Source: Alphaproteobacteria bacterium (GTDB lineage Bacteria > Pseudomonadota > Alphaproteobacteria > Bin95). From it: DNA of 64,000 nucleotides. Both the position numbers and the translations under genes were made by a program. Every line of letters starts with the position of its first letter. Within the stretch, counting starts at the first letter, position 1. The stretch covers positions 32,001-96,000 of the forward strand of contig CAXXWS020000002.1 in the NCBI GenBank assembly GCA_963665325.3, written 5' to 3'. Below, piece after piece: positions 25,311-52,282 of the stretch. The notes beneath the pieces were generated by a model, which was not told where the DNA came from, did no database searches, and saw only the letters and a program-made list of their open reading frames with translations.

Positions 25311-25800
25311 GACCAAGAAAAATTCCTAAAAATTCCTATTTTGTTTCAAAATGGGCTTGACCCTGGAAAAAGTGTGCTACACTGTCACCGAGGGAAGTGG
25401 CGTCCGGGGCCGTTTCCCTCGGATCCGAAAAAGACACCCGCAAAACCGACGGGAGACGTGCGCCCTGCGCCAGCCTCGCGCGCGGGCGCAATCAGGCGCG
25501 CGAAACGCGCCGGCGCTAGCGGGCGCGCCCGCCCGCGCGCGAAACGCGCGAAAAGGGGCGCTGGCCGCCGCCTCGATTCCGCTCGAAAGGAGACCCGATG
25601 ACTGCAACCGACCCCCGCCCCGAACCGCGATCCGGGGTTGCTCCGAGAACCGAGGCTGGGCCCCGGCTCGGAGGCCGGGGCGACGGTTGGGGGACATGCC
25701 CCGTCCGCATGCGGAACATGACATCTCGTGACACATGGCAGGGTGGACCCCTGACGCCGCATGACGAAACATGACACTTCATGACACTTGCGGGGATATC
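25311..25800 (+). repeat. Dispersed element copy A (promoter-hairpin-core-short ORF-CATGACA array)
   Basis: Shares AAACCGACGGGAGACGTGCGCCC (25443-25465) with 33346-33368 and GCGCAATCAGGCGCGCGAAnCGCGCCGGCGC (25486-25516) with 33402-33432 and revcomp 52075-52105; heptamers at 25750/25760/25770/25780; boundaries approximate. Confidence 0.85.
25598..25774 (+). CDS. Putative 58-aa ORF inside element copy A (may be a relic)
   Basis: GAAAGGAG RBS then ATG; ends ...HDET* in the CATGACA array, like the TerS-like ORF of copy C (...HDRT*). Confidence 0.3.
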   Translation: MTATDPRPEPRSGVAPRTEAGPRLGGRGDGWGTCPVRMRNMTSRDTWQGGPLTPHDET

Positions 25801-25977
25801 CCGGCGGCCCGCCGCGTGGCATCCGTCGGAACCCGGCCAAGGCTCCTGACCGGCGCCATAAACTCGGCGCGTCTTGTCGCCGGCTGTGGAGACAGCCAGA
25901 GTCGGCGCGCCAGGGGCAGGCAGGGTACAAGGCTTTGATGGATGAACGACGGTAGAGAGTCGCGGAGTAGCTGCTCC

Positions 25978-27195
25978 ATGAGCAAGTTCGATGTGATCGT
26001 CGTCGGAGGCGGCCTGGTGGGCGCGGCGGCGGCGCGGGCCTTTGCCTCGGCCGGGCTGGAGGCCGCACTGGTGGACCGGGCCCCGGTGGAGACGGGCGCG
26101 GCGTTCGACGGGCGCACCACCGCGATCTCGCACGCCTCCGTGCAGGTGCTGCGGGGCGTCGGCCTCTGGCCGGCGATTGCGGCGCATGCCGAGCCGATGG
26201 CCGACATCCGCATCACCGACGGCGAGGCCCCGGTGTTCCTGCACTACGACCATCGCGAGGTCGGCGACGAGCCGTTCGGCTATATCGTCGAAAACCGCCT
26301 GATCCGCGCGGCCGCAGCGGCGTTGCTGGAGGATACGCCGAATGTCTCGGTGCTCTCTCCGGCCGTGGCCGAGAGGAGCGAGCGGAGCGGGGGCTTCGCC
26401 AGGCTTTCCCTCGCCGGCGGGGACGTGCTGGAAGCGCCGCTCATCGTCGCCGCCGACGGGCGCAGCTCGCCGCTGCGCCGCGAAGCCGGGATCGGCACCG
26501 TGGAGTGGGCTTACGGACAGAAGGCGCTGGTGCTGACCGTCAGCCACGAGCAGCCGCACGGCAATGTGGCGCATGAGCGGTTCCTCGCGGGCGGGCCGTT
26601 CGCGATCCTTCCAATGACCGACGGCCCGGGCGGCGAACACCGCTCCTCCATCGTCTGGTCGGAACGCAGCGACCTCGCGGATGCGCTGCTCACGCTCGAC
26701 GACGCCCGGTTCCTGCAGGAGCTCGAATGGCGTTTCGGCGATTTTCTGGGCGACATCCGGCTCGTCGGCCCGCGCTGGTGCTGGCCGGTCGGGCTGGTTC
26801 TGGCCGAACGGTTCTATGCCGAGCGGCTGGCGCTTGCGGGCGATGCGGCCTGCGGTATCCATCCCATCGCCGGGCAGGGATTCAACCTCGGCATTCGCGG
26901 CGTTGCCGCACTCGTCGAATGCGTCGTCGATTCATTCCGCCTCGGGCTGGACATCGGCGGCCCGGCCGTGCTGGAGGACTACCAGCGCCGGCAGCGGGCC
27001 GACAGCGTCCTGCTCGCCGGCGTCACGGACGGGCTGAACCGCCTGTTCTCGAACGACATTCCGCCCGTCCGGGCGGCTCGGCAATTGGGCCTCGCCGCCG
27101 TCGGACGGATGCCGGGCCTGAAGCGCGCCTTCATGCGCCACGCCATGGGCGTCGCCGGCCAGCCGCCCCGCCTCGTCCGGGGCGAGCCGCTTTGA
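25978..27195 (+). CDS. UbiH/UbiL/COQ6-family FAD-dependent ubiquinone biosynthesis hydroxylase
   Basis: GGGLVG, AADGRSS, AHERF..GPFAILP, GDAA..IHPIAGQGFNLG. Confidence 0.93.
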   Translation: MSKFDVIVVGGGLVGAAAARAFASAGLEAALVDRAPVETGAAFDGRTTAISHASVQVLRGVGLWPAIAAHAEPMADIRITDGEAPVFLHYDHREVGDEPFGYIVENRLIRAAAAALLEDTPNVSVLSPAVAERSERSGGFARLSLAGGDVLEAPLIVAADGRSSPLRREAGIGTVEWAYGQKALVLTVSHEQPHGNVAHERFLAGGPFAILPMTDGPGGEHRSSIVWSERSDLADALLTLDDARFLQELEWRFGDFLGDIRLVGPRWCWPVGLVLAERFYAERLALAGDAACGIHPIAGQGFNLGIRGVAALVECVVDSFRLGLDIGGPAVLEDYQRRQRADSVLLAGVTDGLNRLFSNDIPPVRAARQLGLAAVGRMPGLKRAFMRHAMGVAGQPPRLVRGEPL

Positions 27196-27201
27196 CGCCG
27201 C

Positions 27202-27855
27202 CTACGGCTCGGCGGCGAGGTAACGGCGGAGCGTCGCTGCCATCTTTGCGGCGGGCGTGTCGTGCGGGAAGAGCGTGCGGAACTTCCCGTCCGGCCCCAC
27301 CAGGAAGGTAAGGGTCGCATGGTCCACCAGATAGTCGTCCGCGTCCGCGCCGGCCTCGGACGGCACCTTGCGGCGATGGATGCGCCAGGCTTTCAGCACG
27401 GCGCGGGTCTGGGCGGGCGTTCCGCGCAGCGCTAGGAAGCGCGGGCCGAAATGCGCCATATAGTCCCTGAGCGCCGGCAGGTCGTCGCGTTCGGGATCGA
27501 CGGTGACGAACAGCGGCTGCACCCGTTCGGCCTCAGGACCGAGTTCATCCAGCGCCGCGGCCACGGTCAGCAGGTTGGTCGGGCAAAGGTCCGGGCAGAA
27601 GGTGTAGCCGAAATAGAGGAGCGCGAAGCGGCCCCGGAAGGTCTGGTCCGTCACCGCCCGGCCGTCATGGCCGGTCAGCGCGAACGGGCCGCCGAAGAGC
27701 TTTTCAAGCGGCGGTGGCGAAGAGGGCGGCGATGGGGGCGGCGGCGCGGCGGCGCCAGCGCCGCCATTCGTAGCGTTCGCCGCGCTGGGCGCGGCGGCGG
27801 CGAGGCAGAGGGCGGCGAGCGCCGCCGCAACCACGCGCCCCGCCGCCCCGGCCAT
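27202..27855 (-). CDS. SCO family copper chaperone
   Basis: GGPFAL, YFGYTFCPDLCP, VTVDPERD, YLVDH; signal peptide; start overlaps stop of upstream gene. Confidence 0.93.
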   Translation of the reverse strand: MAGAAGRVVAAALAALCLAAAAPSAANATNGGAGAAAPPPPSPPSSPPPLEKLFGGPFALTGHDGRAVTDQTFRGRFALLYFGYTFCPDLCPTNLLTVAAALDELGPEAERVQPLFVTVDPERDDLPALRDYMAHFGPRFLALRGTPAQTRAVLKAWRIHRRKVPSEAGADADDYLVDHATLTFLVGPDGKFRTLFPHDTPAAKMAATLRRYLAAEP

Positions 27856-29588: not shown

Positions 29589-31204
<1,616 letters not shown>

Positions 31205-31208
<4 letters not shown>

Positions 31209-32348: not shown

Positions 32349-32831
32349 ATGGGCGAAAAGCTGGGCATCGGCGCAGCATTTCCGACGCTTTCGCTAAACC
32401 TGCTGGAGCGGGGGCCGGCCGAGGTGCCGGCGGACATGCCGGGCGCATGGAAAGTGGTGCTGTTCTACCGCGGCCACTGGTGACCCTATTGCCGCCGTCA
32501 GTTGGACGGCTTCCAGGAATTATGGCCGGAGTTCGAGGCGCGCGGCGTCTCCATCCTCGCCGGCAGCGTTGACGACGAGGGCAATGCCCGAAAAATCGCG
32601 GACGGCAAGAGCTTCCCCTTCGCCTGGGGCATGACACGCGCGGATGCGGATCGGATTGGCGCCTGGTGGGAAGACCGCCGCAACATCGTCCAGCCCTCCG
32701 AGTTCATTCTCGACGGGGACGGCAAGGTCGAGGTGTCCAGCTACAGCGACGGCCCGCTCGGCCGCATGGACGCCGCCGACGCGCTCAAGCTGATCGACCT
32801 GTATGAGTCGCGGAGGAAGGCCGGAGGCTGA
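32349..32831 (+). CDS. AhpC/TSA (peroxiredoxin-like) selenoprotein with UxxC motif; UGA at 32481-32483 read as Sec
   Basis: AAGGAGG RBS; FYRGHW-TGA-PYCRRQL continuous in frame with a thioredoxin-fold C-terminal half; hairpin GCCGTC-AGTTG-GACGGC follows. Confidence 0.88.
32494..32510 (+). promoter_or_regulatory. Putative bacterial SECIS element
   Basis: 6-bp perfect stem, loop AGUUG begins 16 nt after the UGA with G(U) at loop position 2. Confidence 0.7.
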
Positions 32832-32877
32832 GTTGCGGGCAGCGGCCGCTCAGACTGAACACAAGGCGAAATTCTGC

Positions 32878-33000
32878 GTGACCGGGGCCGGGTTCTGGGT
32901 CTCGGCGCCGATCCCGGCGGGGTGAACGCGTTCGGTTTGGCGTTCCTCGACAGCTCCGGTGGAGTGGAAGGCCTTACGGTCTCGTCTGTCGATGAATCCG
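32878..33000 (+). pseudogene. Frameshifted N-terminal fragment of a DUF429-like (RNase H-fold) gene
   Basis: FWV/GADPGGVNAFGLAFLD...VSSVDE with a 2-nt shift just before GADPGG; no continuation. Confidence 0.3.
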
Positions 33001-33212
33001 GTCACGGGGTCGGCGCGAGGCTGTTCCAGTTGAAATCCTTGAACAGCGGCAGGGCTTCCGGATCGATATGGAAGCTCCGGTATTTGGGGCCCATGGTGCC
33101 GATGCTGGGTTCGATTGCCCCCGTCCTCCCGGAAGGCGTCGCCCGCGCCAGTATGGCCGAAACCGGTTGCTGTGGCGAACGGGGACATCCGACCTGCGCC
33201 CCAGGATTGCGA

Positions 33213-33660
33213 TTTGTTCATAAAATAAGAAAATTTACAGAAACAACTTGACTCCCGGAAGGTTCGGCCCTAGATGGGGCGGGAGGAAGGAAGCGGCATC
33301 CGGAGGCCGTTTCGTTTGGCGCCGGCGCGAAGAAAGACCCCCGAGAAACCGACGGGAGACGTGCGCCCCGCGTTTGTCTTGCCTTGCGCGCGGGGGCACA
33401 GGCGCAATCAGGCGCGCGAACCGCGCCGGCGCCAACGCGCCGGCCCGCGCGCACGCGATACGCGCGAAACAGGGTCCCGCCGCAAGGGGAGACGGGCGGC
33501 GGGGAAATAGAACAAAACAGGATTTTCAGGAGGGGCCAATGCCGAAGACAGGGACGAGAACGAACCGGACGGAATACCCCGAGCCCCTGCCCGAAAGGAC
33601 TGGACGACATGCGCCCTGCGTATGCGGATCATGACAAAACATGACACTCCCGGGGTGTTC
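33213..33660 (+). repeat. Dispersed element copy B
   Basis: TTGACT at 33248, hairpin GAAGCGGC/GCCGTTTC, both core blocks, CGCGATACGCGCGAAACAGGGTC shared with copy C, AGGAGG-ATG at 33539, CATGACA at 33630 and 33640. Confidence 0.85.
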
Positions 33661-33705
33661 CGCAGCGGAAACCGGCCGCGCCGGTTGCGGACCGGGGCGA
33701 GGCCG

Positions 33706-34251
33706 TCACCCCCGCCCCGCCTGCCTCCGCCGCCAATGGCGCGGGTCAAAGGCGACCTTGTGGCCCCACAGGCCGCGCCGTTCCCGCCGGGCTTCGCGTT
33801 CGACGTCCTTGTAACGGTCTCCATAGGCGGCGATGGCGTGGCCGTTGCGGACCAGCCAGGCGCCCACATCCTTGTCGTCGCAGGTGACGCAGCCCAACAC
33901 GCGGCCAAACCGGTCGATGCCCTCCACGGTCACTTCGACATGCCGACCGCCCACCGCCCGGATGAGCGCGCGCTTGACGCGCTTGCCATGCTTGAACCAG
34001 GTGCCGTCGCGGCGCTTGGCCCACTGGTCCAGTTCCGGTGCATCGAGGCCGGCGAAACGGACCCGATAGCCGGAGACCCGCAGACCGTCACCGTCCGTCA
34101 CCCATGCCTTGCCGGCAATGACGCTGCCGGCTTCCGGCGTCGGCAGGCGCCGGCCGCCTTGCGCGTGGCGCCGGCGGGGCGCCCACCGCCGAGGCCGCTT
34201 CCTGAGAAGCAGGAAGGCGGCTGCGAGGACAAGGACCGCAACGAATTCCAT
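33706..34251 (-). CDS. Thermonuclease (SNase-like) family protein with N-terminal membrane anchor
   Basis: VTDGDGL, RFAGLDAPE, DRFGRVLG, LVRNGHA, EARRERRGLW. Confidence 0.92.
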   Translation of the reverse strand: MEFVAVLVLAAAFLLLRKRPRRWAPRRRHAQGGRRLPTPEAGSVIAGKAWVTDGDGLRVSGYRVRFAGLDAPELDQWAKRRDGTWFKHGKRVKRALIRAVGGRHVEVTVEGIDRFGRVLGCVTCDDKDVGAWLVRNGHAIAAYGDRYKDVEREARRERRGLWGHKVAFDPRHWRRRQAGRG

Positions 34252-34321
34252 GACCCGGCCCGCTTAGCATGTTTACGGCATGCGGGCATCCGCTCCGCCG
34301 GTGCGTTCGTCTCGCCCCGAG

Positions 34322-34508
34322 AAGCTTGGCGGGGGAGAATGCTTGGTAAGATGGGAATGGAGGAAAGGCGGCTTCCCGGAGCCGCCTTTTCGAATTCGGA
34401 AGGCGGGGGCGAGAGGGATATTCCCGAAAGGAACAGGAAACATGCGCCCGGCGCAGGGAGCCTCATGACATCGCATGACATTTCATGACACATCGCTGGA
34501 GTGGGCCC
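34322..34508 (+). repeat. Dispersed element copy D (minimal: promoter, hairpin, RBS, CATGACA x3)
   Basis: TTGGCG-N15-TAAGAT, hairpin GAAAGGCGGC/GCCGCCTTTTC, CATGACA at 34464/34474/34484; 34484-34508 matches revcomp 50926-50950 at 24/25. Confidence 0.75.
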
Positions 34509-34608
34509 TTTGGGACCGTCAGGCGGCGGCCCGGTTTGCGTGTCCGGAGGAAGCGGCTATACCTCTGGGCGGCCCGGAACGGGCGGCCGAGAGGCGGTAT
34601 CGAAAGCG

Positions 34609-35657
34609 ATGACGAAAGACAGCACTGCGGCGCTGGAGGCGGCGGCGGGGGAACGCATCCTCGTTCTAGACGGCGCGATGGGGACCATGATCCAGAAGCT
34701 CAGCCTGGACGAGGCCGACTTCCGCGGCGCTCGCTTCGCCGACTGGGACCGGGACCTCAAGGGCAATAACGATTTGCTGAATCTGACGCTGCCGGACGCT
34801 GTGGGCGATATCCACAACGACTTCCTGGACGCCGGCGCAGACATCCTCGAGACCAACAGCTTCAACGCCACCCGGATCGCGCTGGCCGACTACGGCATGG
34901 AAGCTTTCGCCCGCGAGATCAACGAGACTGCGGCCCGAATCGCCCGCACCGTCGTGGATCGCCGCCGGGACGGCCGGCCGCGCTGGGTTGCTGGCGCCAT
35001 CGGGCCGACCAACCGCACCGCCTCGATTTCCCCCGATGTCGAGGACCCGGCGGCGCGCAATGTCGATTTCGACACGCTCGGCGCCGCCTACCGGGAGGCC
35101 GCCGAAGGCCTGATCGACGGCGGGGCGGACCTGCTGATCGTCGAGACGGTGTTCGACACGCTCAACGCCAAGGCGGCGCTCCACGCCATCGAGGAAGTGT
35201 TCGAGGCGCGCAGCCTCCGTCTGCCGGTCATCGTGTCCGGCACGGTGGTGGACCTGTCCGGACGCACGCTGTCCGGCCAGACGCCGGAGGCCTTCTGGTA
35301 TTCGGTGCGCCATGCCGCGCCCTTCGCGGTCGGGCTCAATTGCGCGCTCGGGGCGGAGCAGATGCGCGGCTTCCTCGCCGATATGGCGCGCTCGGCGGAT
35401 ACGCTGATTTCCGCTTATCCCAATGCCGGCCTGCCCAACGCCTTCGGTGGCTATGACGAGACGCCGGAAACGACAGCGTCCCATCTGGGCGCCTGGGCGC
35501 GGGACGGGCTGGTAAACCTTGTCGGCGGTTGCTGCGGCACCACGCCCGCCCATATCGAAGCCGTTGCGGAGGCGGTGGCGGGCGTGGCCCCGCGCAAGCC
35601 GCCCCGATTGGAGCGGCGCATGCGGCTCGCCGGGCTCGAACCCTTCGTCGCCGCCGC

Positions 35658-35661
<4 letters not shown>
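34609..35661 (+). CDS. metH: Methionine synthase, homocysteine-binding N-terminal module (split MetH part 1)
   Basis: [41 protein letters not shown]. Confidence 0.95.
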
Positions 35662-38296
<2,635 letters not shown>

Positions 38297-38312
<16 letters not shown>

Positions 38313-40911: not shown

Positions 40912-40924
40912 TGACTGTGCGAAA

Positions 40925-40956: not shown

Positions 40957-41058
40957 TGCGACTGAGATACATCGCGCCGGAACCGCCTGTCAGAGGTTCC
41001 GCAAAGTCGTGACGGCGCCGAACCGGCTATGCCTCCGCTACACGTCGGAGCGGGCGCC

Positions 41059-42680: not shown

Positions 42681-43732
42681 CCGCTCCGCTCGTCATCCTC
42701 TCGGGTGTGGTCAAACGGTTCGGGGACTTCACGGCCGTGCACCGCCTGGACCTGGAAATAGCAGCGGGCGAATTCATCGCGATCATGGGCCCGTCCGGCT
42801 GCGGCAAGACGACGACGCTTCGGATGATCGCCGGGCTGGAAGCGCCGAGCGAGGGCGAGATTCGCATCGGCGGACGGCTGATGAACGATGTGCCGGTCCA
42901 CGAGCGCGACACGCCCATGGTCTGGCAGTCGCTGGCCCTGTTCCCTTTCCTGAACGCCCGGGAGAATGTCGAGTTCGGGCTGAGAATGCGCAGGATCGAC
43001 GCCGCCGAGCGGCGCAGGCGTGCGCTCGACTGGCTGGAACGGCTGGAGATCGGCGAGTTCGCCGAGCGCAATATCGACACGCTGTCGGGCGGGCAGCGCC
43101 AGCGCGTGGCCCTGGCGCGCTCGCTGGTGACGGAGCCGCAAATCCTGTTGCTGGACGAACCCTTGTCGGCGTTGGACGCCCACCTGGTCATTCGCATGCA
43201 GGGCGTGCTGACGCGCTTGCAGCGCGAACTCGGCATCACCTTTGTGTACGTCACACACTCGCAATCCGAGGCCTTCGCCATGGCCGACCGGATCGTGATC
43301 ATGTCCGAGGGCCGTATCGTCCAGGTAGGCCAACCGCGCGAGATCTACCGGGCGCCCGAGAACCGCTTCGTGGCCGAGTTCGTGGGCCGCAACAATATCC
43401 TGGCCGGAACCAGCCGCGGCGACGCGATCGAAACGCCGCTCGGCATCTTTCCCGCTGCCGGCCTGCCCGCGACAGGCAACCCTGCCACCCTGGTTGTGGC
43501 CGCCGACCTGGTCCGGATCGGCCGGACGCCGTCTGAAGGCGCCATCCCATGCTCTCTGATTTCCGAGGAGTTTGTAGGTGCGACGGTTACCCTGTTCCTC
43601 GAGGCAGCGGACGGGACGGAACTGAAGGTCCAGCTGCCGGAACGCGCGCTGGGAGATCTGGACCCGCATGCCGGCGGCCAATTCCATCTCAGTTGGCCGG
43701 CCGATGCCGGGCACGTCCTGGCCGAGAGCTGA
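42677..43732 (+). CDS. PotA-like ABC ATP-binding protein
   Basis: GPSGCGKTT, LSGGQRQRVALAR, LLDEPLSALD, C-terminal TOBE. Confidence 0.95.
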   Translation: MTAPLVILSGVVKRFGDFTAVHRLDLEIAAGEFIAIMGPSGCGKTTTLRMIAGLEAPSEGEIRIGGRLMNDVPVHERDTPMVWQSLALFPFLNARENVEFGLRMRRIDAAERRRRALDWLERLEIGEFAERNIDTLSGGQRQRVALARSLVTEPQILLLDEPLSALDAHLVIRMQGVLTRLQRELGITFVYVTHSQSEAFAMADRIVIMSEGRIVQVGQPREIYRAPENRFVAEFVGRNNILAGTSRGDAIETPLGIFPAAGLPATGNPATLVVAADLVRIGRTPSEGAIPCSLISEEFVGATVTLFLEAADGTELKVQLPERALGDLDPHAGGQFHLSWPADAGHVLAES

Positions 43733-43744
43733 CCGGAGGCGCAG

Positions 43745-44626
43745 ATGATCCGGAACCCGATTCCCTGGCCGAACGGCGCAAGATGCGCGGTTGCAATCAC
43801 CTTCGACATGGACGCCGACAGCCTGATCCACATCGCGCGGCCGGAGGACGGGTTCGACCGGCTGTACCCCGTCTCGATGGGCCGCTACGGACCGACGGTC
43901 GCGATCCCCCGCATCCTCGCGACCTATCGGCGGCTGGGGATCAGGCAGAGCTTCTTCATTCCCGGCTGGTGTCTGGAGACGTACCCCGGCGCAGTCGAGG
44001 CGATCCTGAGCGACGGGCACGAGATCGGGCACCACGGCTGGATCCACGAGGATCCGGTGACGACGCGCGGGCCTTCCCAGGCGGAAGCGTTCGAGAAGGC
44101 CCTGGACGCCCACCGCCGGACCTGCGGCGTCCTCCCGCGCGGCTACCGCGCGCCGGTCTATAACGTCACGCAGCAGGTCATCGACCTGATGGTCCGGCAC
44201 GGGCTGCGCTATGACAGCTCGCTCATGGCGGACGACATCCCCTACCGGCTGACGACCGCCGAGGGTGCGCTCTGGGAGATGCCGGTCCACTGGGGCACCG
44301 ACGACTGGCCGCCCTTCGCCCACTACGATGAGATCGGTTACATGATGCCGGTGCGCGGGCCGTCCGCGGGTCTGGCCGGTTTCTGGGAGGAGTTCGAGGC
44401 GCAGTACGAGGCCGGCGGCTTCTTCATGCCCATCCTCCACCCGTTCCTGACCGGCCGGCTGGCTCGCTGGCGATTGGTCGAGCGCTGGCTGGAGGAGATC
44501 ATGGCGAGCCGGAAGGTCTGGGTCGCCCGGCTGGAGGATATTGCCGACCACCTGGACGCCCTTTCCGCCCAGGGGCATGACATCCGCACCGAACGGCTCC
44601 CCTATTATCGAGGACCGCAGACATGA
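43745..44626 (+). CDS. Polysaccharide deacetylase family protein (PuuE/HP0310-like)
   Basis: WPNGARCAVAITFDMD, GHEIGHHGWIHE, GYRAP, YDSSLM, DDWP, LHP. Confidence 0.9.
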   Translation: MIRNPIPWPNGARCAVAITFDMDADSLIHIARPEDGFDRLYPVSMGRYGPTVAIPRILATYRRLGIRQSFFIPGWCLETYPGAVEAILSDGHEIGHHGWIHEDPVTTRGPSQAEAFEKALDAHRRTCGVLPRGYRAPVYNVTQQVIDLMVRHGLRYDSSLMADDIPYRLTTAEGALWEMPVHWGTDDWPPFAHYDEIGYMMPVRGPSAGLAGFWEEFEAQYEAGGFFMPILHPFLTGRLARWRLVERWLEEIMASRKVWVARLEDIADHLDALSAQGHDIRTERLPYYRGPQT

Positions 44627-45075
44627 GCCTGACAGACACCGACCGCCGGATGCTGCGTATCGCCTACGAGGAAGCCAGGGCCGGGTTCGACGAGGGCGGT
44701 TGCCCTATCGGCTCGGTGCTCGCCCGCGGCGACACGGTGGTCGCGCAAGGCCGGAACCGCCGCGTGCAGCAGGGCGACCCCATCGCGCATGGCGAGATGG
44801 ATGCGCTGCGCAAGGCGGGACGCCAACGGACCTACCGCGACACGACCCTCTATACCTCGCTCTCCCCCTGCATGATGTGCTCGGGCACCATCGTCCAGTT
44901 CGGCATACCCCGTGTCGTCATCGCCGAGAATACGACTTTCGGGGGCAATGAAGGGTTCCTCAGCGAACGCGGCGTCGAGGTGGTCGTCGCCGGCGACCAG
45001 GACTGCATTGCGCTTATGACCCGCTTCATCGAAGAACGGCCCGAACTCTGGGCCGAAGACATCGCCGAAGACTGA
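44623..45075 (+). CDS. Cytosine/nucleoside deaminase (yeast FCY1-like CDA fold)
   Basis: EGG.PIGS, HGEMDAL, TSLSPCMMCSG, ELWAEDI. Confidence 0.9.
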   Translation: MSLTDTDRRMLRIAYEEARAGFDEGGCPIGSVLARGDTVVAQGRNRRVQQGDPIAHGEMDALRKAGRQRTYRDTTLYTSLSPCMMCSGTIVQFGIPRVVIAENTTFGGNEGFLSERGVEVVVAGDQDCIALMTRFIEERPELWAEDIAED

Positions 45076-45081
45076 CAGCCC

Positions 45082-46767
45082 TCACGAAAGGGAAAGGCTG
45101 CCCGCGCGGTTAACGGCGCTGGTGACCGCCTTGAGGGAGGCGGAGACGATGTCCGGGTCCATGCCGGCGCCGTGGACGGTGCCGCCGTCGGGCCGCGTCA
45201 TCTGCACGAAGGCTGCGGCCGTGGCGCTGGCGCCCTTTCCGACCGCATGCTCATGGAAGTCGGTCAGCGTGAGGTCGAGGCCGTAGGTGTTGCGCAGCGC
45301 ATCCATATAGGCGTCGATCGGCCCGTTGCCGCGCCCCGTGATCGACCGCTCGACGCCGTTCTCGCGCAGCGTCGCGGTGATGATCCGCATTTCCGAGGCG
45401 TGGGGATCGGGACGGGTCGCATCCGAGACGAACTCCAGCGGTGTCGCGGCCTTGAGATAGGCGCCCTCGAACGCCTCCCAGATGCGCGCCGGCGCCAGCT
45501 CTTCCTCGGTCTCGTCGGCGATCTGCTGCACCTGCTGGCTGAACTCGACCTGCACCGAGCGCGGCAGCGAGATGCCGTATGCGCGTTCCAGGATATAGGC
45601 GATGCCCCCCTTGCCGGACTGGCTGTTGATTCGCACCACCGTCTCGTAGGTGCGGCCGAGGTCCGCCGGGTCGATGGGCAGGTAGGGCACCTCCCAGACC
45701 GGGCTGTTGGCCTGCTCCAGCGCGGTGAAGCCCTTCTTGATCGCGTCCTGGTGCGAGCCGGAGAAGGCGGTATAGACCAGCTCGCCCGCCCAGGGATGGC
45801 GCGGATGGACCGGCAGGCGGTTGCAATGCTCCGCCACCTCGATGGTGTGGTTGATGTCCGAGAAGTCGAGGGCCGGATCGACGCCCTGGGTGTACATGTT
45901 GATCGCAAGCGTCACGATATCGACATTGCCGGTGCGCTCGCCATTGCCGAACAGCGTCCCTTCGATGCGTTCCGCGCCGGCCATGAAGGCGAGCTCGGCG
46001 GCGGCCACGCCCGTGCCCCGGTCGTTGTGCGGGTGCAGGCTCAGCACGATGCTGTCGCGCCGGGCAAGGTTGCGGTGCATCCACTCGATCTGGTCGGCGT
46101 AGATGTTCGGCGTCGCCATCTCCACCGTCGCCGGCAGGTTGACGATCATCTTGCGCTCGGGCGTCGGCTGCCAGACTTCCGAGACCGCATCGCAGATGTC
46201 CCTGGCGTAGTCGAGCTCGGTGCCGGTGAAGCTCTCCGGCGAATACTGGTAGATGACCTCGGTTTCCGGGACCGTCGGCGTCAGCTCCCTGATGAGTTTC
46301 GCGCCATCGACGGCGATCTTCGTGATGCCGTCCCGGTCCTGGCCGAAGACGACACGGCGCTGCAGCGTCGAGGTCGAGTTGTAGAGGTGCACGATGGCCC
46401 GGCGCGACCCGGCGATGGCCTCGAAGGAGCGCCGGATCAGCTCGTCGCGCGACTGGGTGAGCACCTGGATGGTGACATCGTCGGGGATCATTCCCTTGTC
46501 GATGATGTGGCGGCAGAAGTCGAAATCGGTCTGGCTGGCGGAGGGGAAGCCGACCTCGATCTCCTTGAAGCCGAGGCGCAGGAGTTCCTCGAACATGCGC
46601 AGCTTCCGCCGGAGGCCCATCGGCTCCACGAGCGCCTGGTTGCCGTCGCGCAGATCGACGGAGCACCAGATGGGCGGGCGGGTGATGACGGCGCCCGGCC
46701 AGGTCCGGTCGGGCAGGTCGATCGGCTGGAAGGGCGGGTATTTGTCGGCGGGGTCGATACTGGGCAT
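45082..46767 (-). CDS. leuA: 2-isopropylmalate synthase (yeast/Mycobacterium-type)
   Basis: WCSVDLRDGNQAL, HPHNDRG, GNGERTGN, AFSGSHQDAIKKG, GNGPID. Confidence 0.97.
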   Translation of the reverse strand: MPSIDPADKYPPFQPIDLPDRTWPGAVITRPPIWCSVDLRDGNQALVEPMGLRRKLRMFEELLRLGFKEIEVGFPSASQTDFDFCRHIIDKGMIPDDVTIQVLTQSRDELIRRSFEAIAGSRRAIVHLYNSTSTLQRRVVFGQDRDGITKIAVDGAKLIRELTPTVPETEVIYQYSPESFTGTELDYARDICDAVSEVWQPTPERKMIVNLPATVEMATPNIYADQIEWMHRNLARRDSIVLSLHPHNDRGTGVAAAELAFMAGAERIEGTLFGNGERTGNVDIVTLAINMYTQGVDPALDFSDINHTIEVAEHCNRLPVHPRHPWAGELVYTAFSGSHQDAIKKGFTALEQANSPVWEVPYLPIDPADLGRTYETVVRINSQSGKGGIAYILERAYGISLPRSVQVEFSQQVQQIADETEEELAPARIWEAFEGAYLKAATPLEFVSDATRPDPHASEMRIITATLRENGVERSITGRGNGPIDAYMDALRNTYGLDLTLTDFHEHAVGKGASATAAAFVQMTRPDGGTVHGAGMDPDIVSASLKAVTSAVNRAGSLSLS

Positions 46768-46884
46768 GGGACTAAAGCGGTCCTCGGTTTCCGCGCGGCG
46801 CATATCGGGCGGTCAGCGCGGCTTCGAATCTTGGAAATGCAGGGACGTTCGACGGCGGTGAGGTCACACCCGCCGGGCAGCCGT

Positions 46885-46941
46885 TCAGGCCCGGCGAGCG
46901 CCGGTAAGGCCCAGAAGCAGAATGCCGCGAAGGTCGAACAT
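46885..46941 (-). CDS. Leucine-rich leader peptide of leuA (MFDLRGILLLGLTGARRA)
   Basis: 18-aa ORF with 5 Leu codons (three consecutive), about 120 nt upstream of leuA on the same strand. Confidence 0.7.
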   Translation of the reverse strand: MFDLRGILLLGLTGARRA

Positions 46942-47050
46942 GATGGACCGGCTTATAGGGGAGCGCCGCCGGGCCTGTCAACGGGTTCTGGACCGGCGCT
47001 CCGGAACGGGCTACCGAGGGGGCGTGCTTTCGAGGAACGGGAGACAGAGG

Positions 47051-47776
47051 ATGCGTTTGCAGGGTCGGGTTGCGGCGGTGACGGGGGCTGGCGGCGGGAT
47101 CGGCGGGGCGGTTGCGGCCGCCTTCCGCGCCGAAGGAGCCATCGTGGTGGGGGCGGACCTCAAGGCGGACGGGCTCGGTCCGGACGGCCTGGTCATAGAC
47201 GTGTCGAATCCTGAGGATGCGAGGCGCCTTGTGTCCGAGACGGTCGCGCGCCACGGCCGCATCGACATTCTCGCCAATGTGGCGGGCACCAGCCTGCGGC
47301 ATGCGTTCCTCGACGTGACGCAGGAAGACTTCGACCGCATCCTCCGGGTCAACCTCCACGGCAGCTTCTACTGCGCGCAGGAGGCGGCCCGCGCCATGGC
47401 CGAAGCCGGCTACGGGCGCATCGTCAATATCGCGTCCATCTCCGGTGTGCGCGCGGGCGCCGAGCGCACGGCCTACGGCATATCCAAGGCGGGTGTCATC
47501 GCGCTGACGCAGCAGGCGGCGCATGAGCTGGCGCCCTTCGGCATCACGGTGAACGCCATCGCGCCGGGGCCGGTCGATACCGAGCTTACCCGCGTCCATC
47601 ACACGCCCGCCGCCCGCGCCAACTACAAGCGCATGATCCCTGCCGGCCGTTACGGCCTCTGCGAGGAGATGGCGGACGCGGCAGTGTTCCTCGCGGGCGA
47701 GGCGGCGGCTTACGTTAACGGCGTCGTGCTCCCCGTGGACGGCGGCTACCTCGCCGCCGGCGTTCGCGAGGACTGA
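47051..47776 (+). CDS. SDR family oxidoreductase
   Basis: TGAGGGIG, YGISK, VNAIAPG, VDGG. Confidence 0.92.
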   Translation: MRLQGRVAAVTGAGGGIGGAVAAAFRAEGAIVVGADLKADGLGPDGLVIDVSNPEDARRLVSETVARHGRIDILANVAGTSLRHAFLDVTQEDFDRILRVNLHGSFYCAQEAARAMAEAGYGRIVNIASISGVRAGAERTAYGISKAGVIALTQQAAHELAPFGITVNAIAPGPVDTELTRVHHTPAARANYKRMIPAGRYGLCEEMADAAVFLAGEAAAYVNGVVLPVDGGYLAAGVRED

Positions 47777-47793
47777 CGCTCGAATCCGGGCCA

Positions 47794-47822
47794 TTGACAA
47801 GCCGCGCCCGGCAACCACTATT
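47794..47822 (+). promoter_or_regulatory. Putative sigma70 promoter of argD-argF-hslO
   Basis: TTGACA then CACTAT(T) at 16-17 bp spacing. Confidence 0.45.
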
Positions 47823-47887
47823 GCGCGCTTCCCCGCCGGCTCGCGGCGGGGATGTCGTTTGAAGAACTCTCTGAAGGAGACCCACTC

Positions 47888-49069
47888 GTGATCGCCCCCC
47901 TGATGCCGACCTATGGGGATCGGGACATCGCTTTCGAGAAAGGCGAGGGACCGTACCTCTTCGCGTCCGACGGGCGGCGGTTCCTGGACTTCGGCGGCGG
48001 GATTGCCGTGACCGCTCTCGGCCACGCCCATCCCGGCCTTGTTGCCGCGCTCCAGGATCAGGCCGGCCGGCTTTGGCATACCTCGAACCTGTACAATATC
48101 CCCAACCAGGAGCGAGCCGGGCGACGACTGGCCGACAACAGCTTCGCGGACACGGTCTTCTTCTGCAATTCCGGCCTCGAGGCCATCGAGTGCGGCATCA
48201 AGCTCGTGCGCAAGCACTATGCCGACAAGGGCGAGCCGGAACGCTTCCGCATTATTACCGTCGAAGGCTGCTTCCACGGCCGCTCGCTCGCCTCCATCGC
48301 GGCTTCCGGCCAGGAGAAGCTCTACAAGGGCTTCGGCCCGGTGACGGAGGGCTTCGACCAGGTGGCCTTCGGCAATCTCAACGAGCTGCGCGCCGCCGTG
48401 ACGGCTGAGACCTGCGCCGTGCTTGTCGAGCCGGTGCAGGGCGAGGGCGGCATCCGCCCGATGTCCACGGATTACCTGAAGGGCGTCCGCGCGCTTTGCG
48501 ACGAATTCGGTCTCTTGATGTTCCTCGACGAGGTGCAGTGCGGCATGGGCCGCACGGGCAAGCTGTTCGCCTATGAATGGTCCGGCATCCGCCCGGACGT
48601 GATGGCGCTCGCCAAGGGCCTCGGCGGCGGCTTCCCCGTCGGCGCCTGCCTCGCGACGGAAGAGGCAGCGTCGGGTATGGTCGCCGGCACGCACGGCTCC
48701 ACCTTCGGCGGCAACCCGCTGGCGACGGCGGTCGTCAACGCCGTGCTGGATGCGCTGCTGGCCGAGGGCTTCCTCGATGGCGTGCAGGCGCGTGCTGCGG
48801 ACCTGCACGGGCGTCTGGAGGCGCTTGCGACACGCTATCCCGACACGATTCTGGACGTGCGCGGCATGGGCATGATGGTCGGCATCCGGGTCGGCCCCGC
48901 CAATGGCGAGTTCGTCGGCGCGCTGCGCCGCCAGGGCCTGCTGGCGGTGCCGGCGGGCGAGAATGTCGTGCGCCTGCTGCCGCCGCTGGTCGTCGAGGAT
49001 GCGCATGTCGGCGAGGCGGTCGGCATGGTCGAAGGCGCTTGCCGGGAATTTGCCGCCGCCGCTGCGTGA
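47888..49069 (+). CDS. argD: Acetylornithine aminotransferase
   Basis: LWHTSNLY, FHGRS, EPVQGEGG, DEVQCGMGRTG, AKGLGGG, HGSTFGGNPL; GTG after GAAGGAGA. Confidence 0.94.
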   Translation: MIAPLMPTYGDRDIAFEKGEGPYLFASDGRRFLDFGGGIAVTALGHAHPGLVAALQDQAGRLWHTSNLYNIPNQERAGRRLADNSFADTVFFCNSGLEAIECGIKLVRKHYADKGEPERFRIITVEGCFHGRSLASIAASGQEKLYKGFGPVTEGFDQVAFGNLNELRAAVTAETCAVLVEPVQGEGGIRPMSTDYLKGVRALCDEFGLLMFLDEVQCGMGRTGKLFAYEWSGIRPDVMALAKGLGGGFPVGACLATEEAASGMVAGTHGSTFGGNPLATAVVNAVLDALLAEGFLDGVQARAADLHGRLEALATRYPDTILDVRGMGMMVGIRVGPANGEFVGALRRQGLLAVPAGENVVRLLPPLVVEDAHVGEAVGMVEGACREFAAAAA

Positions 49070-49075
49070 GAGCGT

Positions 49076-49978
49076 ATGAACGCGCCGCGCCACTTCCTCG
49101 ACCTTAAGGACTACGACGGGGCTGCGCTCCGTCGTATCCTCGACCGCGCCCTCGCCTTCAAGGCGGGGGACCCGGCGCGGCCGCTCGAGGGCAAGACGCT
49201 CGCCATGATCTTCGAGCAGCCCTCGACCCGCACCCGCGTGTCCTTTGAGGTCGCCATGCGCCAGCTCGGCGGCCATGTCATCGTGCTTTCGGGCCAGGAC
49301 ACGCAGGTCAAGCGCGGCGAAAGCTGGGCCGACACGGCGCGGGTGCTGTCGCGCTATGTCGATGCGATCATGATCCGCACCGACAATCACGACAAGCTGA
49401 CCGAGCTCGCCGCCAACTCGGAGGTGCCGGTCATCAACGGCCTGACGGACCGCTCGCATCCCTGCCAGCTCATGGCGGATGTGATGACCTTCGAGGAGCA
49501 GCGCGGCGCCATCGCGGGCAAGCGCGTCGCCTGGAGCGGCGACGGCAACAATGTCGCGACGAGCTGGATCCACGCCGCGGCGCGTTTCGACTTCGATTTC
49601 GCCGTCGGCTGCCCGCCGGAGCGCCGACCGCCGGCCGAAGCGCTCGCCTGGGCGGAGGCGAACGGTGCGCGGGTGAGCGTCCATGACGACCCCGTTGCCG
49701 CCGTGCGCAATGCGGACGCGGTCGTAACCGATGTCTGGGTCTCGATGAACGACGGCGGGGAACAAAGCCGCCACAATCTGCTCGCACCGTACCGCGTGGA
49801 CGAACGCCTGATGGCGCGGGCGCTGCCGGACGCGATTTTCCTGCATTGTCTGCCCGCGCACCGTGAGGAAGAAGTGTCGGGCGCGGTGATCGACGGGCCG
49901 CAATCGGTCGTCTGGGACGAGGCGGAAAACCGGCTGCACGCCCAGAAGGGCATTCTCGCCTGGTGCCTCGGGCGGTAG
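49076..49978 (+). CDS. argF: Ornithine carbamoyltransferase
   Basis: [29 protein letters not shown]. Confidence 0.97.
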
Positions 49979-49987
49979 CGCCGGCGC

Positions 49988-50884
49988 ATGGACGGACAGG
50001 CGGCGTTTCGCGACGATTATGTGCGGCCCTTCCGGCTCGGCGGCACGCGGGTGCGCGGTCGCCTTGTGCGGCTCGGGCCGGAAGTCGCGCAGATTCTCGA
50101 CCGGCACGCCTATCCCGACGCGCAGGCAGAGGTGCTCGGCGAATCGCTGGCCATTGCGGCCGCGCTCTCGCAGTCGCTCAAGGCCGAGGGCATCTTCACG
50201 CTCCAGGTCGAGGGCAAAGGTCCGATCCGGCGGCTGGTGGCGGATATCGACGCATCGGGGCTCATGCGTGGCTTCGCGGGCTTCGACGGGGAGATGCCCT
50301 CGGACGGGTCCGGCGGTGCACCCTTCGGGTCCGGCTATCTGGCGTTTACTTTCGACCCCGCGGACGGCGGCGAGCGCTACCAGGGCGTGGTCGAACTGGC
50401 GGAGGGCGGCCTGACTGCCTCCGTGTTGCACTATTTCCGCCAGTCGGAACAGATCGACACCTGCCTTGCGGCTGCCTGCGGCCGGCGCAGCGGCGACTGG
50501 CGCGCGGCGGCGCTGATGCTCCAGCGGCTGCCGGATGAACATCCGGACCCGTCGGAGGAAACCGGCGAGCTCTGGACCAGGCTCGGGCATTACATGCAAA
50601 CCGTCGGGCCGGACGAGCTGCTGGATCCCGCGCTGCCGGGGGATGCGTTGCTCCTGCGCCTCTTCCACCGCGACGAGTTGCGCGTCGATCCCCAGCGCCG
50701 GCTCCGCGACGGCTGCCGCTGCGGCGGCCGGGCACGGATGGAGACCGTGCTCCGCGCGCTGTCCGCCGGCGAGACGGACGACCTGCGCCGTGAGGACGGC
50801 TCGCTGGAGATGGTCTGCCAGTTCTGCGGCCGCGCCGAAGCCTTCTCCGCCGACCAGGCCACCGCCCTCGTCCGCACCTCGTAG
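49988..50884 (+). CDS. hslO: Hsp33 redox chaperone
   Basis: VRGRLVRL, RYQGVV, YFRQSEQ, CRC...CQFC zinc switch. Confidence 0.93.
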   Translation: MDGQAAFRDDYVRPFRLGGTRVRGRLVRLGPEVAQILDRHAYPDAQAEVLGESLAIAAALSQSLKAEGIFTLQVEGKGPIRRLVADIDASGLMRGFAGFDGEMPSDGSGGAPFGSGYLAFTFDPADGGERYQGVVELAEGGLTASVLHYFRQSEQIDTCLAAACGRRSGDWRAAALMLQRLPDEHPDPSEETGELWTRLGHYMQTVGPDELLDPALPGDALLLRLFHRDELRVDPQRRLRDGCRCGGRARMETVLRALSAGETDDLRREDGSLEMVCQFCGRAEAFSADQATALVRTS

Positions 50885-50955
50885 CGGCGCCGGGTTCCGA
50901 GAGACGCGATGCAGCGCGTCCGCCGGGGCCCACTCCAGCGAAGTGTCATGAGTTG

Positions 50956-51936
50956 TCATGTTCTGTCATGGTCCGGCGCGGAACCGGCGCCCTCGAGCCC
51001 GGTCTTCCTTCCCCTCTTCTTCTTTTTCTTTTTCGTCGCCGGTCCACTCCAGTCACCGTCTTCGCCGCCGCCCCGTTCTTCCCGTTCGAGGCGGTTCCGC
51101 GTTCGCTGCCCGACCTCCTCCGGGGCCCAGGGGGCGTAGATTTCGTCGTAGCCGTTGCGGCGCTGGTAGAGCCAGTCATGTTCGGCGCCGTCGGCCCTGT
51201 CACCGTCGACCCTGTCCTCGTCGCCGGACCCTTCGCCACCTGCCCACGGGCAATCCTCGTAGGTCTCCTCGGGCGGGTCGTCGGCGGGGGGCCGGTCTTC
51301 GGGCGAAGCCGGTTCGGGGGCCTCGAAGCAGACGGGCAGTCGCGTCCGCTCCTCGACGGCCCCGGCGAGCCTGCGGGCAACCTCCTCATGCGCGGCCCCG
51401 TCGAAGCCCTCCTGCGCCTCAAGCTCCTCCCGGCTGGCATGGTGCCGCGCGAGCGCGCATCGGGCGCGGTCGAGGCCGCTGCGCACGGCCTCGACGAGCG
51501 GCCCGGGTTCGGCTCCGGCCTCCTCAGCCTCGCCCGCTTCGATCTCGCCGAACTCGTCCTCGTGCGGCAGCGGCCAGAGCCCCGCACGGCGCGCGGTCGT
51601 CGGCCCCGTAAGCCCCGCGATCTCGGCCTGGAAGCGCAGCACCCGGAGCATCGTGTAGGCCGAGCCGCTGGCGACGGCCGCGTCCCACGCCTGCTCCAGC
51701 CGGGCAAGCAGGATGCGGGCCTCGTCCCGCTCGGTGCGCTTCCATGACAGGCGGATGCGCCGCAGCCGTTCGACAATGTAGGGTCGTTCCAATAAGGCGC
51801 AGCCGGTCTGGCGGGCGGAGCGCCCGGAGTAGCCGGCCTGCCTTGCAGCGTCTGCGGCATTGCCGGAGACGGCATAGTGGCGGCAGAAGGCTTCCTGGCG
51901 TGTGGACAGCGCGACGGCGGGTTGGATGATGGGCAT
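50956..51936 (-). CDS. Terminase small subunit-like HTH protein with long low-complexity tail
   Basis: N-terminus LSTRQEAFCRHYAVSGNAADAARQAGYS..SARQTGCALLERPYI fits Terminase_2 (PF03592) pattern; AAGGAG RBS. Confidence 0.75.
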   Translation of the reverse strand: MPIIQPAVALSTRQEAFCRHYAVSGNAADAARQAGYSGRSARQTGCALLERPYIVERLRRIRLSWKRTERDEARILLARLEQAWDAAVASGSAYTMLRVLRFQAEIAGLTGPTTARRAGLWPLPHEDEFGEIEAGEAEEAGAEPGPLVEAVRSGLDRARCALARHHASREELEAQEGFDGAAHEEVARRLAGAVEERTRLPVCFEAPEPASPEDRPPADDPPEETYEDCPWAGGEGSGDEDRVDGDRADGAEHDWLYQRRNGYDEIYAPWAPEEVGQRTRNRLEREERGGGEDGDWSGPATKKKKKKRGRKTGLEGAGSAPDHDRT

Positions 51937-51953
51937 GGGGCGGAGCTCCTTTC

Positions 51954-51968
51954 GTTCCGCTAACGTTC
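51954..51968. promoter_or_regulatory. Alphaproteobacterial LexA (SOS) box
   Basis: GTTC-CGCTAAC-GTTC, exact GTTC-N7-GTTC, immediately upstream of the RBS of the TerS-like gene. Confidence 0.7.
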
Positions 51969-52282
51969 TTTCGAGTCGAACCTGATTTCAGGGCCGACAC
52001 ACAGCCATCACCCCGACCCGTCTCCGGAGCGACCCTGTTTCGCGCGTATCGCGGGCGGGCGCGGGCGCGTGTTGGCGCCGGCGCGGTTCGCGCGCCTGAT
52101 TGCGCGCGCGAGCCGGAGGACGCACTTCGCCTGTTTGTTGAATCGGGGTTGTTCTGCGCCGGGCCGGCGCGAAGGGAAGCGGACCATGGATACCGCTTCC
52201 CTCGGAGCCATTGTAGCATAATTTCCTGAGGGTCAAGCCTGTTTCGGAATTAATTCAAAACAAGAGAACAAGAAGTCATGCC

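Follow-up and report, generated by a model that had tools for sequence, protein, structure and literature searches.

Results

Four copies of a modular element in the window

The DNA analysed here (the window) is a stretch of 64,000 nucleotides from an Alphaproteobacteria bacterium (assembly GCA_963665325.3, contig CAXXWS020000002.1, positions 32,001 to 96,000). At four places it contains copies of a short modular element, named A, B, D and C in their order along the window, one of which (copy C) carries a gene, T, whose product resembles a phage small terminase (TerS). This dispersed four-copy pattern is real. The neighbouring genes encode P-II, a UbiH-like FAD monooxygenase, a split MetH and Hsp33.

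All four copies are built in the same order. A promoter-like site, with TGn directly before the -10 hexamer in copies A, C and D and a more divergent sequence in copy B, is followed on its 3' side by a GAAGCGG-type hairpin. A 31-nt GC-rich core, GCGCAATCAGGCGCGCGAA(A/C)CGCGCCGGCGC, is present in A, B and C and missing in D. A ribosome-binding site (RBS) and an ATG then open a reading frame (ORF) of 8 (D), 31 (B), 58 (A) or 326 codons (C), and the copy ends with CATGACA heptamers at a 10-bp period. The heptamer CATGACA was counted 21 times in the window, compared with 4.3 ± 2.3 times in shuffled sequences, and none of 100 shuffles reached 21. A preliminary description of the window had claimed this order of parts, the -35/-10 pairs, the common core, the phased heptamers, the spread of ORF lengths and the housekeeping neighbours, and each of these was found as described. 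The features are collected in Table 1.

Table 1. Features of the four element copies (window coordinates).
Feature	Position	Strand	Remarks
Copy A	25316-25795	+	complete chassis, M-type remnant ORF; leader match C3:57323-57560
Copy A promoter-like site	25357-25383	+	TTGACC-N15-(TGc)TACACT
Copy A 5' stem-loop	25388-25423	+	CCGAGGGAAGTGGC...GCCGTTTCCCTCGG
Copy A 31-nt GC core	25486-25516	+	near-invariant
Copy A ORF MTATDPRP...	25598-25774	+	58 codons, M remnant
Copy A heptamer arrays	25717-25786	+	CATGACA 25717, CGTGACA 25727; CATGACG 25760, CATGACA 25770 and 25780
Copy B	33213-33660	+	complete chassis; 31-codon ORF; heptamers 33630, 33640
Copy B promoter-like site	33248-33276	+	TTGACT-N17-TAGATG
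Copy B 31-nt GC core	33402-33432	+	
Copy B 31-codon ORF	ATG 33539, stop 33632-33634	+	stop within first heptamer
Copy D	34296-34522	+	short form without GC core; weak partial leader match
Copy D promoter-like site	34326-34352	+	TTGGCG-N15-TAAGAT
Copy D 5' hairpin	34362-34391	+	
Copy D 8-codon ORF	34442-34468	+	
Copy D heptamers	34464, 34474, 34484	+	
Copy D IS3 inverted-repeat-like stretch	34497-34508	+	TGGAGTGGGCCC; directly after heptamers
Copy C	50944-52270	-	full-length T-type element; AT-rich left end (TGTTC) to 4-6 nt beyond last heptamer
Copy C promoter-like site	52210-52236	-	TTGACC-N15-(TGc)TACAAT
Copy C 31-nt GC core	52075-52105	-	
Copy C GAAC-N7-GAAC box (LexA-type motif)	51954-51968	-	GAACGTTAGCGGAAC; between leader and T RBS, just upstream of RBS
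Copy C T gene	50956-51936	-	326 aa; N-terminal small-terminase helix-turn-helix (HTH); last codons HDRT* encoded by heptamers
Copy C heptamer array	50944-50970	-	three CATGACA, 10-bp period

A genome-wide family pairing a leader with a phased array

The source genome (G000) is a 5.58-Mb assembly in five contigs. A profile of the leader (nhmmer, seeded with copies A, B and C and iterated once) matched it at 75 places, of which 65 were full length (>130 bits). Of these 65 leaders, 63 had a heptamer array downstream on their own strand within 3 kb, and 60 had one within 1.1 kb, compared with about 1.4 of 65 expected by chance, as estimated from array density. For the two unpaired leaders, the next array was 40 kb away in one case and there was none in the other. 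Under a strict rule of at least two exact CATGAC[AG] at 10 bp, the genome contained 76 arrays (40 triple, 20 double, 10 of four, 5 of five and 1 of six heptamers). A full leader lay within 3 kb upstream on the same strand for 69 of the 76, and most of the other seven were near partial leader matches. Consecutive same-strand CATGAC pairs exactly 10 bp apart numbered 157; the next commonest spacing, 21 bp, was found 18 times. The preliminary description had expected many more copies from their density in the window alone and had proposed a profile scan for paired ones; the 65 full copies bear this expectation out.

A looser heptamer scan was also run, from which about 12 chance matches in coding DNA and an insertion sequence (IS)-internal sequence were set aside as false positives. 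The latter, CATGACGCTCCATGACC, is internal to another IS that is present in 11 identical copies (at G000:C1:1487054 and ten other sites).

The copies are intergenic, and their orientation agrees with that of the upstream gene in 44 of 63 cases and with that of the downstream gene in 39 of 63, while 24 of 63 converge on the downstream gene. Since this bias with respect to the neighbours is only mild, the family is not simply a 5' regulatory element. Some copies form a subfamily with two heptamer arrays about 100-115 bp apart and a conserved spacer between them (G000:C1:848771/848878, C1:270602/270499, C4:737561/737673 and C4:449738/449621).

Conserved parts of the chassis

In all full copies the shared frame, or chassis, consists of an UP-like AT tract, a sigma-70-type promoter, a leader with a 5' hairpin and the GC core, an RBS and ATG, a cargo and the heptamers. 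In the 65-copy consensus, the AT-rich tract starts at TTGTTC, about 38 nt before the -35 hexamer. The promoter reads TTGACC, a 15-nt spacer and (TG)cTAgaAT, with key positions 80-99% conserved and a variable spacer, and agrees with what we take to be the alphaproteobacterial housekeeping consensus. The first stem-loop of the leader comes next, and after it a short GC palindrome with an A-run behind it; the near-invariant GCGCAATCAGGCGCGCGAACCGCGCCGGCGCC and, later, CGCGATACGCGCGAAACAGGG precede the RBS and ATG.

The first stem-loop was found in essentially every copy, with differing stem sequences. In an alignment of 53 copies from several genomes, 91% of the cells of its main helix were paired and four of its eight pairs changed on both sides. 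Overall, 82% of the hairpin structure was paired, compared with 40-60% when partners were slid, and its covariation score was reached in 3 of 500 shuffles. The forward strand of this hairpin folded more stably in 47 of the 65 copies and had more G-U pairs than the complement (143 versus 61); because the copies are related, these 65 comparisons are not independent trials. Outside the first hairpin, the leader showed almost no covariation (RNAalifold term -0.63; 1 of 22 pairs changed on both sides), and as a whole it showed no strand asymmetry in folding (27 of 65). A structured RNA spanning the whole leader was thereby rejected, and support is for the first hairpin alone. The Rfam check proposed in the preliminary description gave no match at gathering score in the 64-kb window, only chance-level matches over copy B (E 0.67-9.5).

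The GC core is conserved as sequence, being almost invariant although the copies differ by about 20% overall. This uniformity may reflect either selection on each copy or gene conversion of the GC-rich core.

The arrays, which end the unit, comprise two to six heptamers, one per helical turn (10 bp). With three heptamers at a 10-nt period, each of the three frames receives a TGA and an ATG. In nearly every copy the cargo ORF, preceded by a good RBS directly after the leader, stops at a TGA inside the array. The five T-type copies of the genome have sharp borders: similarity starts near TGTTC and stops 4-6 nt past the last heptamer. Their aligned termini (left ...TGTTC(N)GAAATAATTCC, right ...CATGACACTTC) contain no terminal inverted repeats, as had been noted for the window.

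Four other possible roles, of the heptamers or of the elements, were rejected. An exact CATGAC within 95 nt upstream of the -35 hexamer, as an att-like direct repeat at the left end would require, was present in only 5 of 65 copies. Translational coupling through the three-frame ATGA was not supported, as 13 of 39 co-oriented downstream ORFs were open back to the array, which fits chance (estimated stop frequency). No polarity of the KOPS or Chi kind was detected, with 32 of 65 elements and 1634 of 3270 genes co-oriented with the local G-rich strand. Finally, CATG was not avoided as a restriction site might be (observed/expected 1.04).

The cargo genes T and M and the short ORFs

In full-length copies the cargo is either T or a second gene, M. 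T encodes a protein of 326 amino acids and is present in five copies in G000, including copy C. Its N-terminus matched PF03592 (E 4.7e-12, residues 11-80) and PHROG 51 (8e-14), and residues 10-58 matched the DNA-binding domain of the SF6 small terminase (PDB 4zc3, 2cmp and 3zqp; E 1.4e-4 to 6.2e-4). The C-terminal region, of about 230 residues, is acidic and well conserved. It was represented by 42 cluster representatives among 1.84 billion proteins, and all nine of those tested carried PF03592. From these searches, this region is family-specific and found only with a PF03592-type N-terminus. The five paralogues share 91-95% DNA identity with a dN/dS of 0.16-0.31, and by this measure all five are under purifying selection. 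A word-index search listed 333 relatives of T; the best 120 of the 333 were 64-100% identical, several of them coming from one contig.

T and M, the second cargo gene, end in or directly before the array in every genome inspected. The invariant C-terminal His-Asp of T is encoded by the CAT GAC of a heptamer. An HD-x-[ST] end was also present in 5 of 10 distant T homologues inspected (33-50% identity), so that the link between T and the heptamer predates the genus-level family.

M encodes an acidic, aromatic-rich protein of 187 amino acids without homology to T. It matched no Pfam family, and neither M nor T matched an NCBIfam or PADLOC model. One intact copy was found in G000, and M is multicopy in other genomes; G013, for instance, has 15 or more full-length matches.

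Among the short ORFs, two types are remnants of these genes: an MPII... type derived from T (e.g. MPIID... ORFs of 65-99 amino acids) and an MTATDPRP... type derived from M, as in copy A. Other types derive from neither, namely MPKT.SR.NRTEYPEP... (31-44 codons, as in copy B), MQDTDG... and MQERPG...; the 31-codon type was found again in other species. A conserved segment with a CATGCGC...GCGCATG palindrome precedes the array; related copies read it in different frames, and it is therefore not constrained as a peptide. Judging from these remnants, many short copies are products of internal deletion in which both ends were retained, clearly so for several. The proposal that the short copies derive from a TerS-encoding element consequently stands for several of them, which are T remnants, and fails as a general account, given the second founder M and the ORF types derived from neither gene.

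A LexA-type box upstream of T

An exact GAAC-N7-GAAC box, which we take to be, together with GTTC-N7-GTTC, the alphaproteobacterial box of the SOS (DNA damage) response, precedes the RBS of the TerS-like gene, as the preliminary description had pointed out for copy C. It is kept in 16 of 20 T copies (4 of 5 in G000 and 12 of 15 in loci of other genomes), with five different spacers across copies. The promoter region of the organism's own lexA contains the same motif, GAACTAATGTAGAAC, and its recA has a one-mismatch version only.

Distribution, gain and loss, and age of the copies

Comparison was made with 16 genomes of the same genus (congeners, labelled G0xx) and 14 genomes of other genera in the class. 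The leader was detected in 13 of the 16 congeners, with 102-198 candidates each (a first-look count and not full copies as in G000), and in none of the 14 other genomes. T was present in 12 and M in 13 of the 16; leader, T and M were all absent in G001 and G003, and G014 had no leader and one weak partial M match only. Triple heptamers numbered 104 in G012, 33 in G008 and only 9 in G009 (which has leaders and one M gene and no T), compared with none in the leader-free G001 and G014; the reversed pattern was found nowhere. When the GC core of copy B was used as an exact query string in a scan of public genome contigs, all records containing it were titled as uncultured Alphaproteobacteria or Rhodospirillales metagenome-assembled genomes. 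Within these samples, the family is restricted to one genus.

At orthologous sites, copies B and D were absent in G005 and copy B in G013. The B site of G005 retained a short remnant resembling the last heptamer and the IS3 inverted-repeat-like stretch. The glnK-ubiH spacer occupied by copy A is 112 bp long in G014 versus about 905 bp in G000, and the copy A orthologue in G011 lacks the GC core. A further copy (G000:C1:289329) was missing in G005, where 2 bp stand in place of 486 bp, and present in G011 with an IS inside its array. The block inserted there exceeds the conserved unit by about 115 bp and has a CATGAC-containing hairpin at its start; its filled/empty junction allows a 4-5 bp duplication, CGGCC, and this does not suffice to define a mechanism. 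The copy D junctions were too diverged to read. Five of the eight copies examined have flanks that lie apart from each other in at least one relative. The empty-site comparison suggested earlier yielded absent copies and, for target duplication, this one possible case. Movement of the copies is deduced from presence and absence at orthologous sites only.

Nearest-neighbour identity among the leaders of G000 ranged from 0.71 to 0.94 (median about 0.80), without any pair reaching 95%. For 38 of the 65 leaders, the nearest sampled relative lay in another genome, the cross-genome sample consisting only of loci with the exact core. One orthologous copy compared between G000 and G011 was identical at 306 of 337 positions (91%), compared with 79 of 96 (82%) at neighbouring third codon positions and 63 of 78 (81%) in the adjoining spacer; this is a single locus.

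Insertion sequences were repeatedly found at the arrays, which seem, from these positions, to attract them. The inverted repeat of an IS3-family IS of about 1.25 kb (G000:C3:954360-955617, rve transposase) is TGGAGTGGGCCCCTGGGGCCGGACAG. Its initial 13-25 nt occur by themselves immediately behind 14 arrays, among them those of window copies D (34497-34508) and C (50925-50937), and the whole IS follows two arrays (C1:1379549 and C4:114329). A second IS type, with the end CACTAGTGTCCGGTTGAGG, lies inside an array in G011 (locus L162, G011:C2:1618900-1621900) and, independently, in the array at G000:C1:1284087.

Other observations at the loci

The short ORF of copy A contains an inserted palindrome resembling repetitive extragenic palindromic (REP) sequences, GGCTGGGCCCCGGCTCGGAGGCCGGGGCGAC (window 25652-25684). 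The same palindrome is present in the orthologous spacer of G003 (locus L109, 707-738), a genome without the element family. About 370 bp upstream of copy B (window 32833-33200, after the stop of the upstream gene) are also absent in G005 and G013; this segment contains a minus-strand ORF of 123 amino acids without a Pfam match. The left end of copy C is adjoined by the 3' part of an IS3-type transposase gene (window 52285-~52560, + strand) which, read by eye, encodes the C-terminal part (...GKWIGFYNTIRPHSALGGRTPAEAYW...) and is truncated on its 5' side. The methionine synthase (window 34501-38312, + strand) is encoded by two overlapping ORFs: the first (34501-35661) has the homocysteine S-methyltransferase domain and the second (35658-38312) the pterin-binding, B12-binding and activation domains.

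Elsewhere in G000, a Mu-like prophage has a packaging module (G000:C1:482511-486140, locus L165) consisting of gp27, a large terminase (TerL; Terminase_6N/6C) and a Mu portal. Two further blocks of G000 correspond to 7-37 bp in G011 and/or G005: one of 1.65 kb (L157, G000:C4:735000-749000, 7225-8871) and one of 1.04 kb (L155, G000:C1:270000-289999, 14759-15798).

Discussion

A satellite-like packaging module as a tentative explanation

The copies probably constitute a proliferating element family that has T and M as its own genes and includes many short deletion derivatives. As for the nature of this element, the best explanation overall is a multiplied, minimal module resembling the pac-terS region of a phage satellite, which we propose tentatively, as an account somewhat more apt to fail than to hold. 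Two considerations lead to it. The T unit is laid out like a phage packaging-initiation region, and satellites offer a precedent, as those of the SaPI (Staphylococcus aureus pathogenicity island) type encode a TerS that recognises the satellite's own pac site, according to the part of PMC6092414 used here.

On this model, the T-type unit would descend from a phage packaging-initiation module (promoter, repeats and terS). DNA damage would lift LexA repression and T would be made, the SOS box tying its expression to prophage induction. Oligomers of T would load on the phased heptamers of all copies, and these T-array complexes would then serve the large terminase of a phage, whether induced or infecting, with DNA being cut and packaged at the copies. 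New copies would arise through transfer and recombination and not through a transposase of the element itself. Binding of the heptamers by T, for which the constant association of T with the array is the one piece of indirect evidence, is close to an even matter that leans slightly towards no, and the full chain of packaging hijack is unlikely to hold from end to end. We consider improbable a version in which spread is transposase-free throughout, an SOS-gated TerS-like protein acting on dozens of landing pads over all large replicons and a compatible phage terminase packaging from each. Were it true, the family would be a distributed phage satellite that renders the whole host genome transducible in segments and copies itself through subsequent recombination.

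Several observations weigh against a satellite-like pac-terS module. The Pfam match of T spans only positions 2-71 of the 141 in the profile, and IMG/VR contained only distant TerS relatives (31-32% identity over the HTH). No large terminase or portal gene lies beside any of the five T copies, unrelated host DNA being reached within about 1.4 kb. In a TerL search of G000, PF03237 was found only in the Mu-like prophage (C1:~484 kb), which has its own gp27, and PF03354 and PF04466 gave no match. The isolated SF6 DNA-binding domain is a weak, non-specific binder, as stated in the part of PMC4737164 used here, so that sequence-specific binding of the heptamers by T is not a given. The box upstream of T is next to the RBS, some 250 nt 3' of the promoter-like site, an unusual place for an operator. 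GAAC-N7-GAAC boxes are not enriched genome-wide (119 versus about 103 expected), and the SOS argument therefore rests on conservation at the T position. One contig, C2 (196 kb), has no array or leader copy. The low nearest-neighbour identity in G000 gives no sign of recent spread, and by this divergence the copies are old. RNA contigs from four runs over 32800-52400 were scattered, of low depth and on housekeeping genes, with none over copies B, D and C, and are uninformative either way. Finally, the model leaves unexplained why the promoter, RBS and GC core are kept in T-less copies, and what role M plays.

Alternative explanations

Unlikely, though the most serious of the alternatives, is a non-autonomous transposable element that a transposase or recombinase mobilises in trans; T and M would be passenger or accessory genes, and the leader and the array would be the two unlike ends that are recognised. 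High copy number, intergenic sites, presence or absence at orthologous sites and deletion derivatives that retain both ends all suit such an element, as do the possible CGGCC duplication, the non-adjacent flanks in relatives and the landing of two unrelated IS types in or beside arrays. However, the termini are not inverted repeats, and no mover tracks the family. The profile for Y1 HUH transposases (PF01797; IS200/IS605, RAYT) had no match in G000 and a match in only 1 of the 16 congeners (absent in 15), while giving control matches in 6 of 14 reference genomes; that for Y2 HUH transposases (PF04986; IS91) had none in G000 and matches in 3 of 16 congeners (absent in 13). Both types were rejected on these grounds. 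A reverse transcriptase was rejected as well since it is not co-distributed with the element, which is present without the enzyme in G009, while G001 and G014 have the enzyme without the element. In addition, the left end coincides with the exact start of the UP-like tract of the promoter, so that the unit resembles a transcription unit and not a transposon arm. Near-identical copies are missing from G000, and the deep linkage of T with the heptamer is given no reason.

A further alternative is a set of host-domesticated, immobile genes for regulatory RNAs or small proteins, which would share a stabilising, translation-competent 5' untranslated region and end in an array serving as an end module or as sites for a host RNA- or DNA-binding protein. 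We regard this as unlikely, slightly more so than a transposable element. It is consistent with the retention, in nearly all 65 copies and despite about 20% divergence, of the promoter key positions, the 5' hairpin with its compensatory changes, the RBS and the ATG, and with the orthologous copy that evolves more slowly than nearby third codon positions. That every cargo ORF, in whatever frame, stops in the array, that the 31-codon ORF type recurs in other species and that orientation leans towards that of the neighbouring genes also fit. Yet the reading of the conserved 3' segment in different frames leaves no peptide constraint there, and the peptides, rich in Arg and low in complexity, look like those that chance ORFs would give in 67% GC DNA. 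Of 63 copies, 24 converge on the downstream gene. Copies are absent at orthologous sites in congeners, and three congeners lack the family altogether. The RNA evidence stops at the first hairpin, the whole leader showing neither strand asymmetry nor appreciable covariation beyond it.

T itself would admit a defensive role, as an anti-phage decoy in which SOS-induced T, seated on dozens of arrays, captures a phage large terminase and spoils packaging. T is indeed a multicopy TerS-type orphan whose gene follows a strong promoter-like site and a LexA-type box, all five copies are under purifying selection, and interference with packaging is a known theme among satellites in the part of PMC6092414 used here. 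Against this, T and M match no PADLOC model, and M and the many T-less copies are not accounted for; a decoy is very improbable. Chance resemblance or an assembly artefact, the latter already disfavoured in the preliminary description by the divergence between copies, can be dismissed given that no shuffle reached the heptamer count of the window, that 63 of 65 leaders are paired, and that the copies are mutually diverged and the family recurs in 13 independent assemblies.

Significance of the family

If the satellite-like model were true, the unit of promoter, TerS-type protein and repeat array, without integrase or replicon, would be the smallest and most multiplied phage-satellite-like module known, and would connect the SOS response with packaging or rearrangement of DNA across the genome in an uncultured genus. 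Independently of any mechanism, T and M are two new protein families, both multicopy, with T under purifying selection, and T shows that the DNA-binding domains of small terminases have been recruited outside phage packaging operons. The conserved promoter-leader chassis could serve as an expression tool. The family may also be used as a marker of genome plasticity, its copies lying at breaks of collinearity and seeming to attract IS insertions.

Comparison with known systems

A literature search (supplements aside) returned no description of such an element. As far as sequences can be compared, the family resembles phage satellites and small intergenic repeats, and has the defining features of none of them.

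Like SaPIs and other phage-inducible chromosomal islands (PICIs), it is chromosomal and has its own TerS homologue apart from any large terminase, the cognate site presumably lying beside the gene. LexA reportedly controls the SaPI packaging operon I, and a conserved GAAC-N7-GAAC box precedes T here. SaPIs and PICIs are about 10-15 kb in size, whereas the present copies measure 0.4-1.4 kb and contain a single ORF. They number at least 65 per genome instead of one or few, most lack a terS-like gene, and a second, unrelated cargo, M, is found on the same chassis. Set against the list of PICI and SaPI features in the part of PMC6092414 used here, the element lacks an integrase with a specific att site, a master repressor, a replication module (pri/rep-ori) and genes for capsid remodelling.

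With the pac-terS region of SPP1 and SF6, the T unit has in common the match of its N-terminus to the SF6 DNA-binding domain and the compact arrangement of a promoter, direct repeats and a terS-type gene, as far as that arrangement is set out in the part of PMC4737164 used here. It differs in its heptamers, whose period is strictly 10 bp and whose place is the 3' end of the gene, in the family-specific C-terminal region of about 230 residues, in having no adjoining terL or portal gene, and in being dispersed and multicopy.

Miniature inverted-repeat transposable elements (MITEs), Correia elements (CREE), RIME and REP/BIME are, like the present copies, short, intergenic, high-copy and lineage-restricted; they too may carry promoters, occur as internally deleted derivatives and lie at points of rearrangement. 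In contrast to these, the present family has two unlike ends without inverted repeats and a complete transcription unit with an RBS and an ORF, some of its copies carry genes under purifying selection, and it has no known parent IS.

IS200/IS605-derived PATEs and IS91/ISCR elements likewise have hairpins at asymmetric ends and lack both inverted repeats and an obvious target duplication. IS91 targets GTTC/CTTG, and GTTC is found at the left border here. The HUH transposases that these elements require were not found in G000.

Phage morons, finally, differ from the present copies in that the latter are chromosomal and outside prophages, multicopy, and equipped with a long conserved leader and with a phased array in place of a terminator. 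As in morons, however, the unit starts exactly at a promoter and ends just after an ORF, and different ORFs occupy the same frame of conserved parts.

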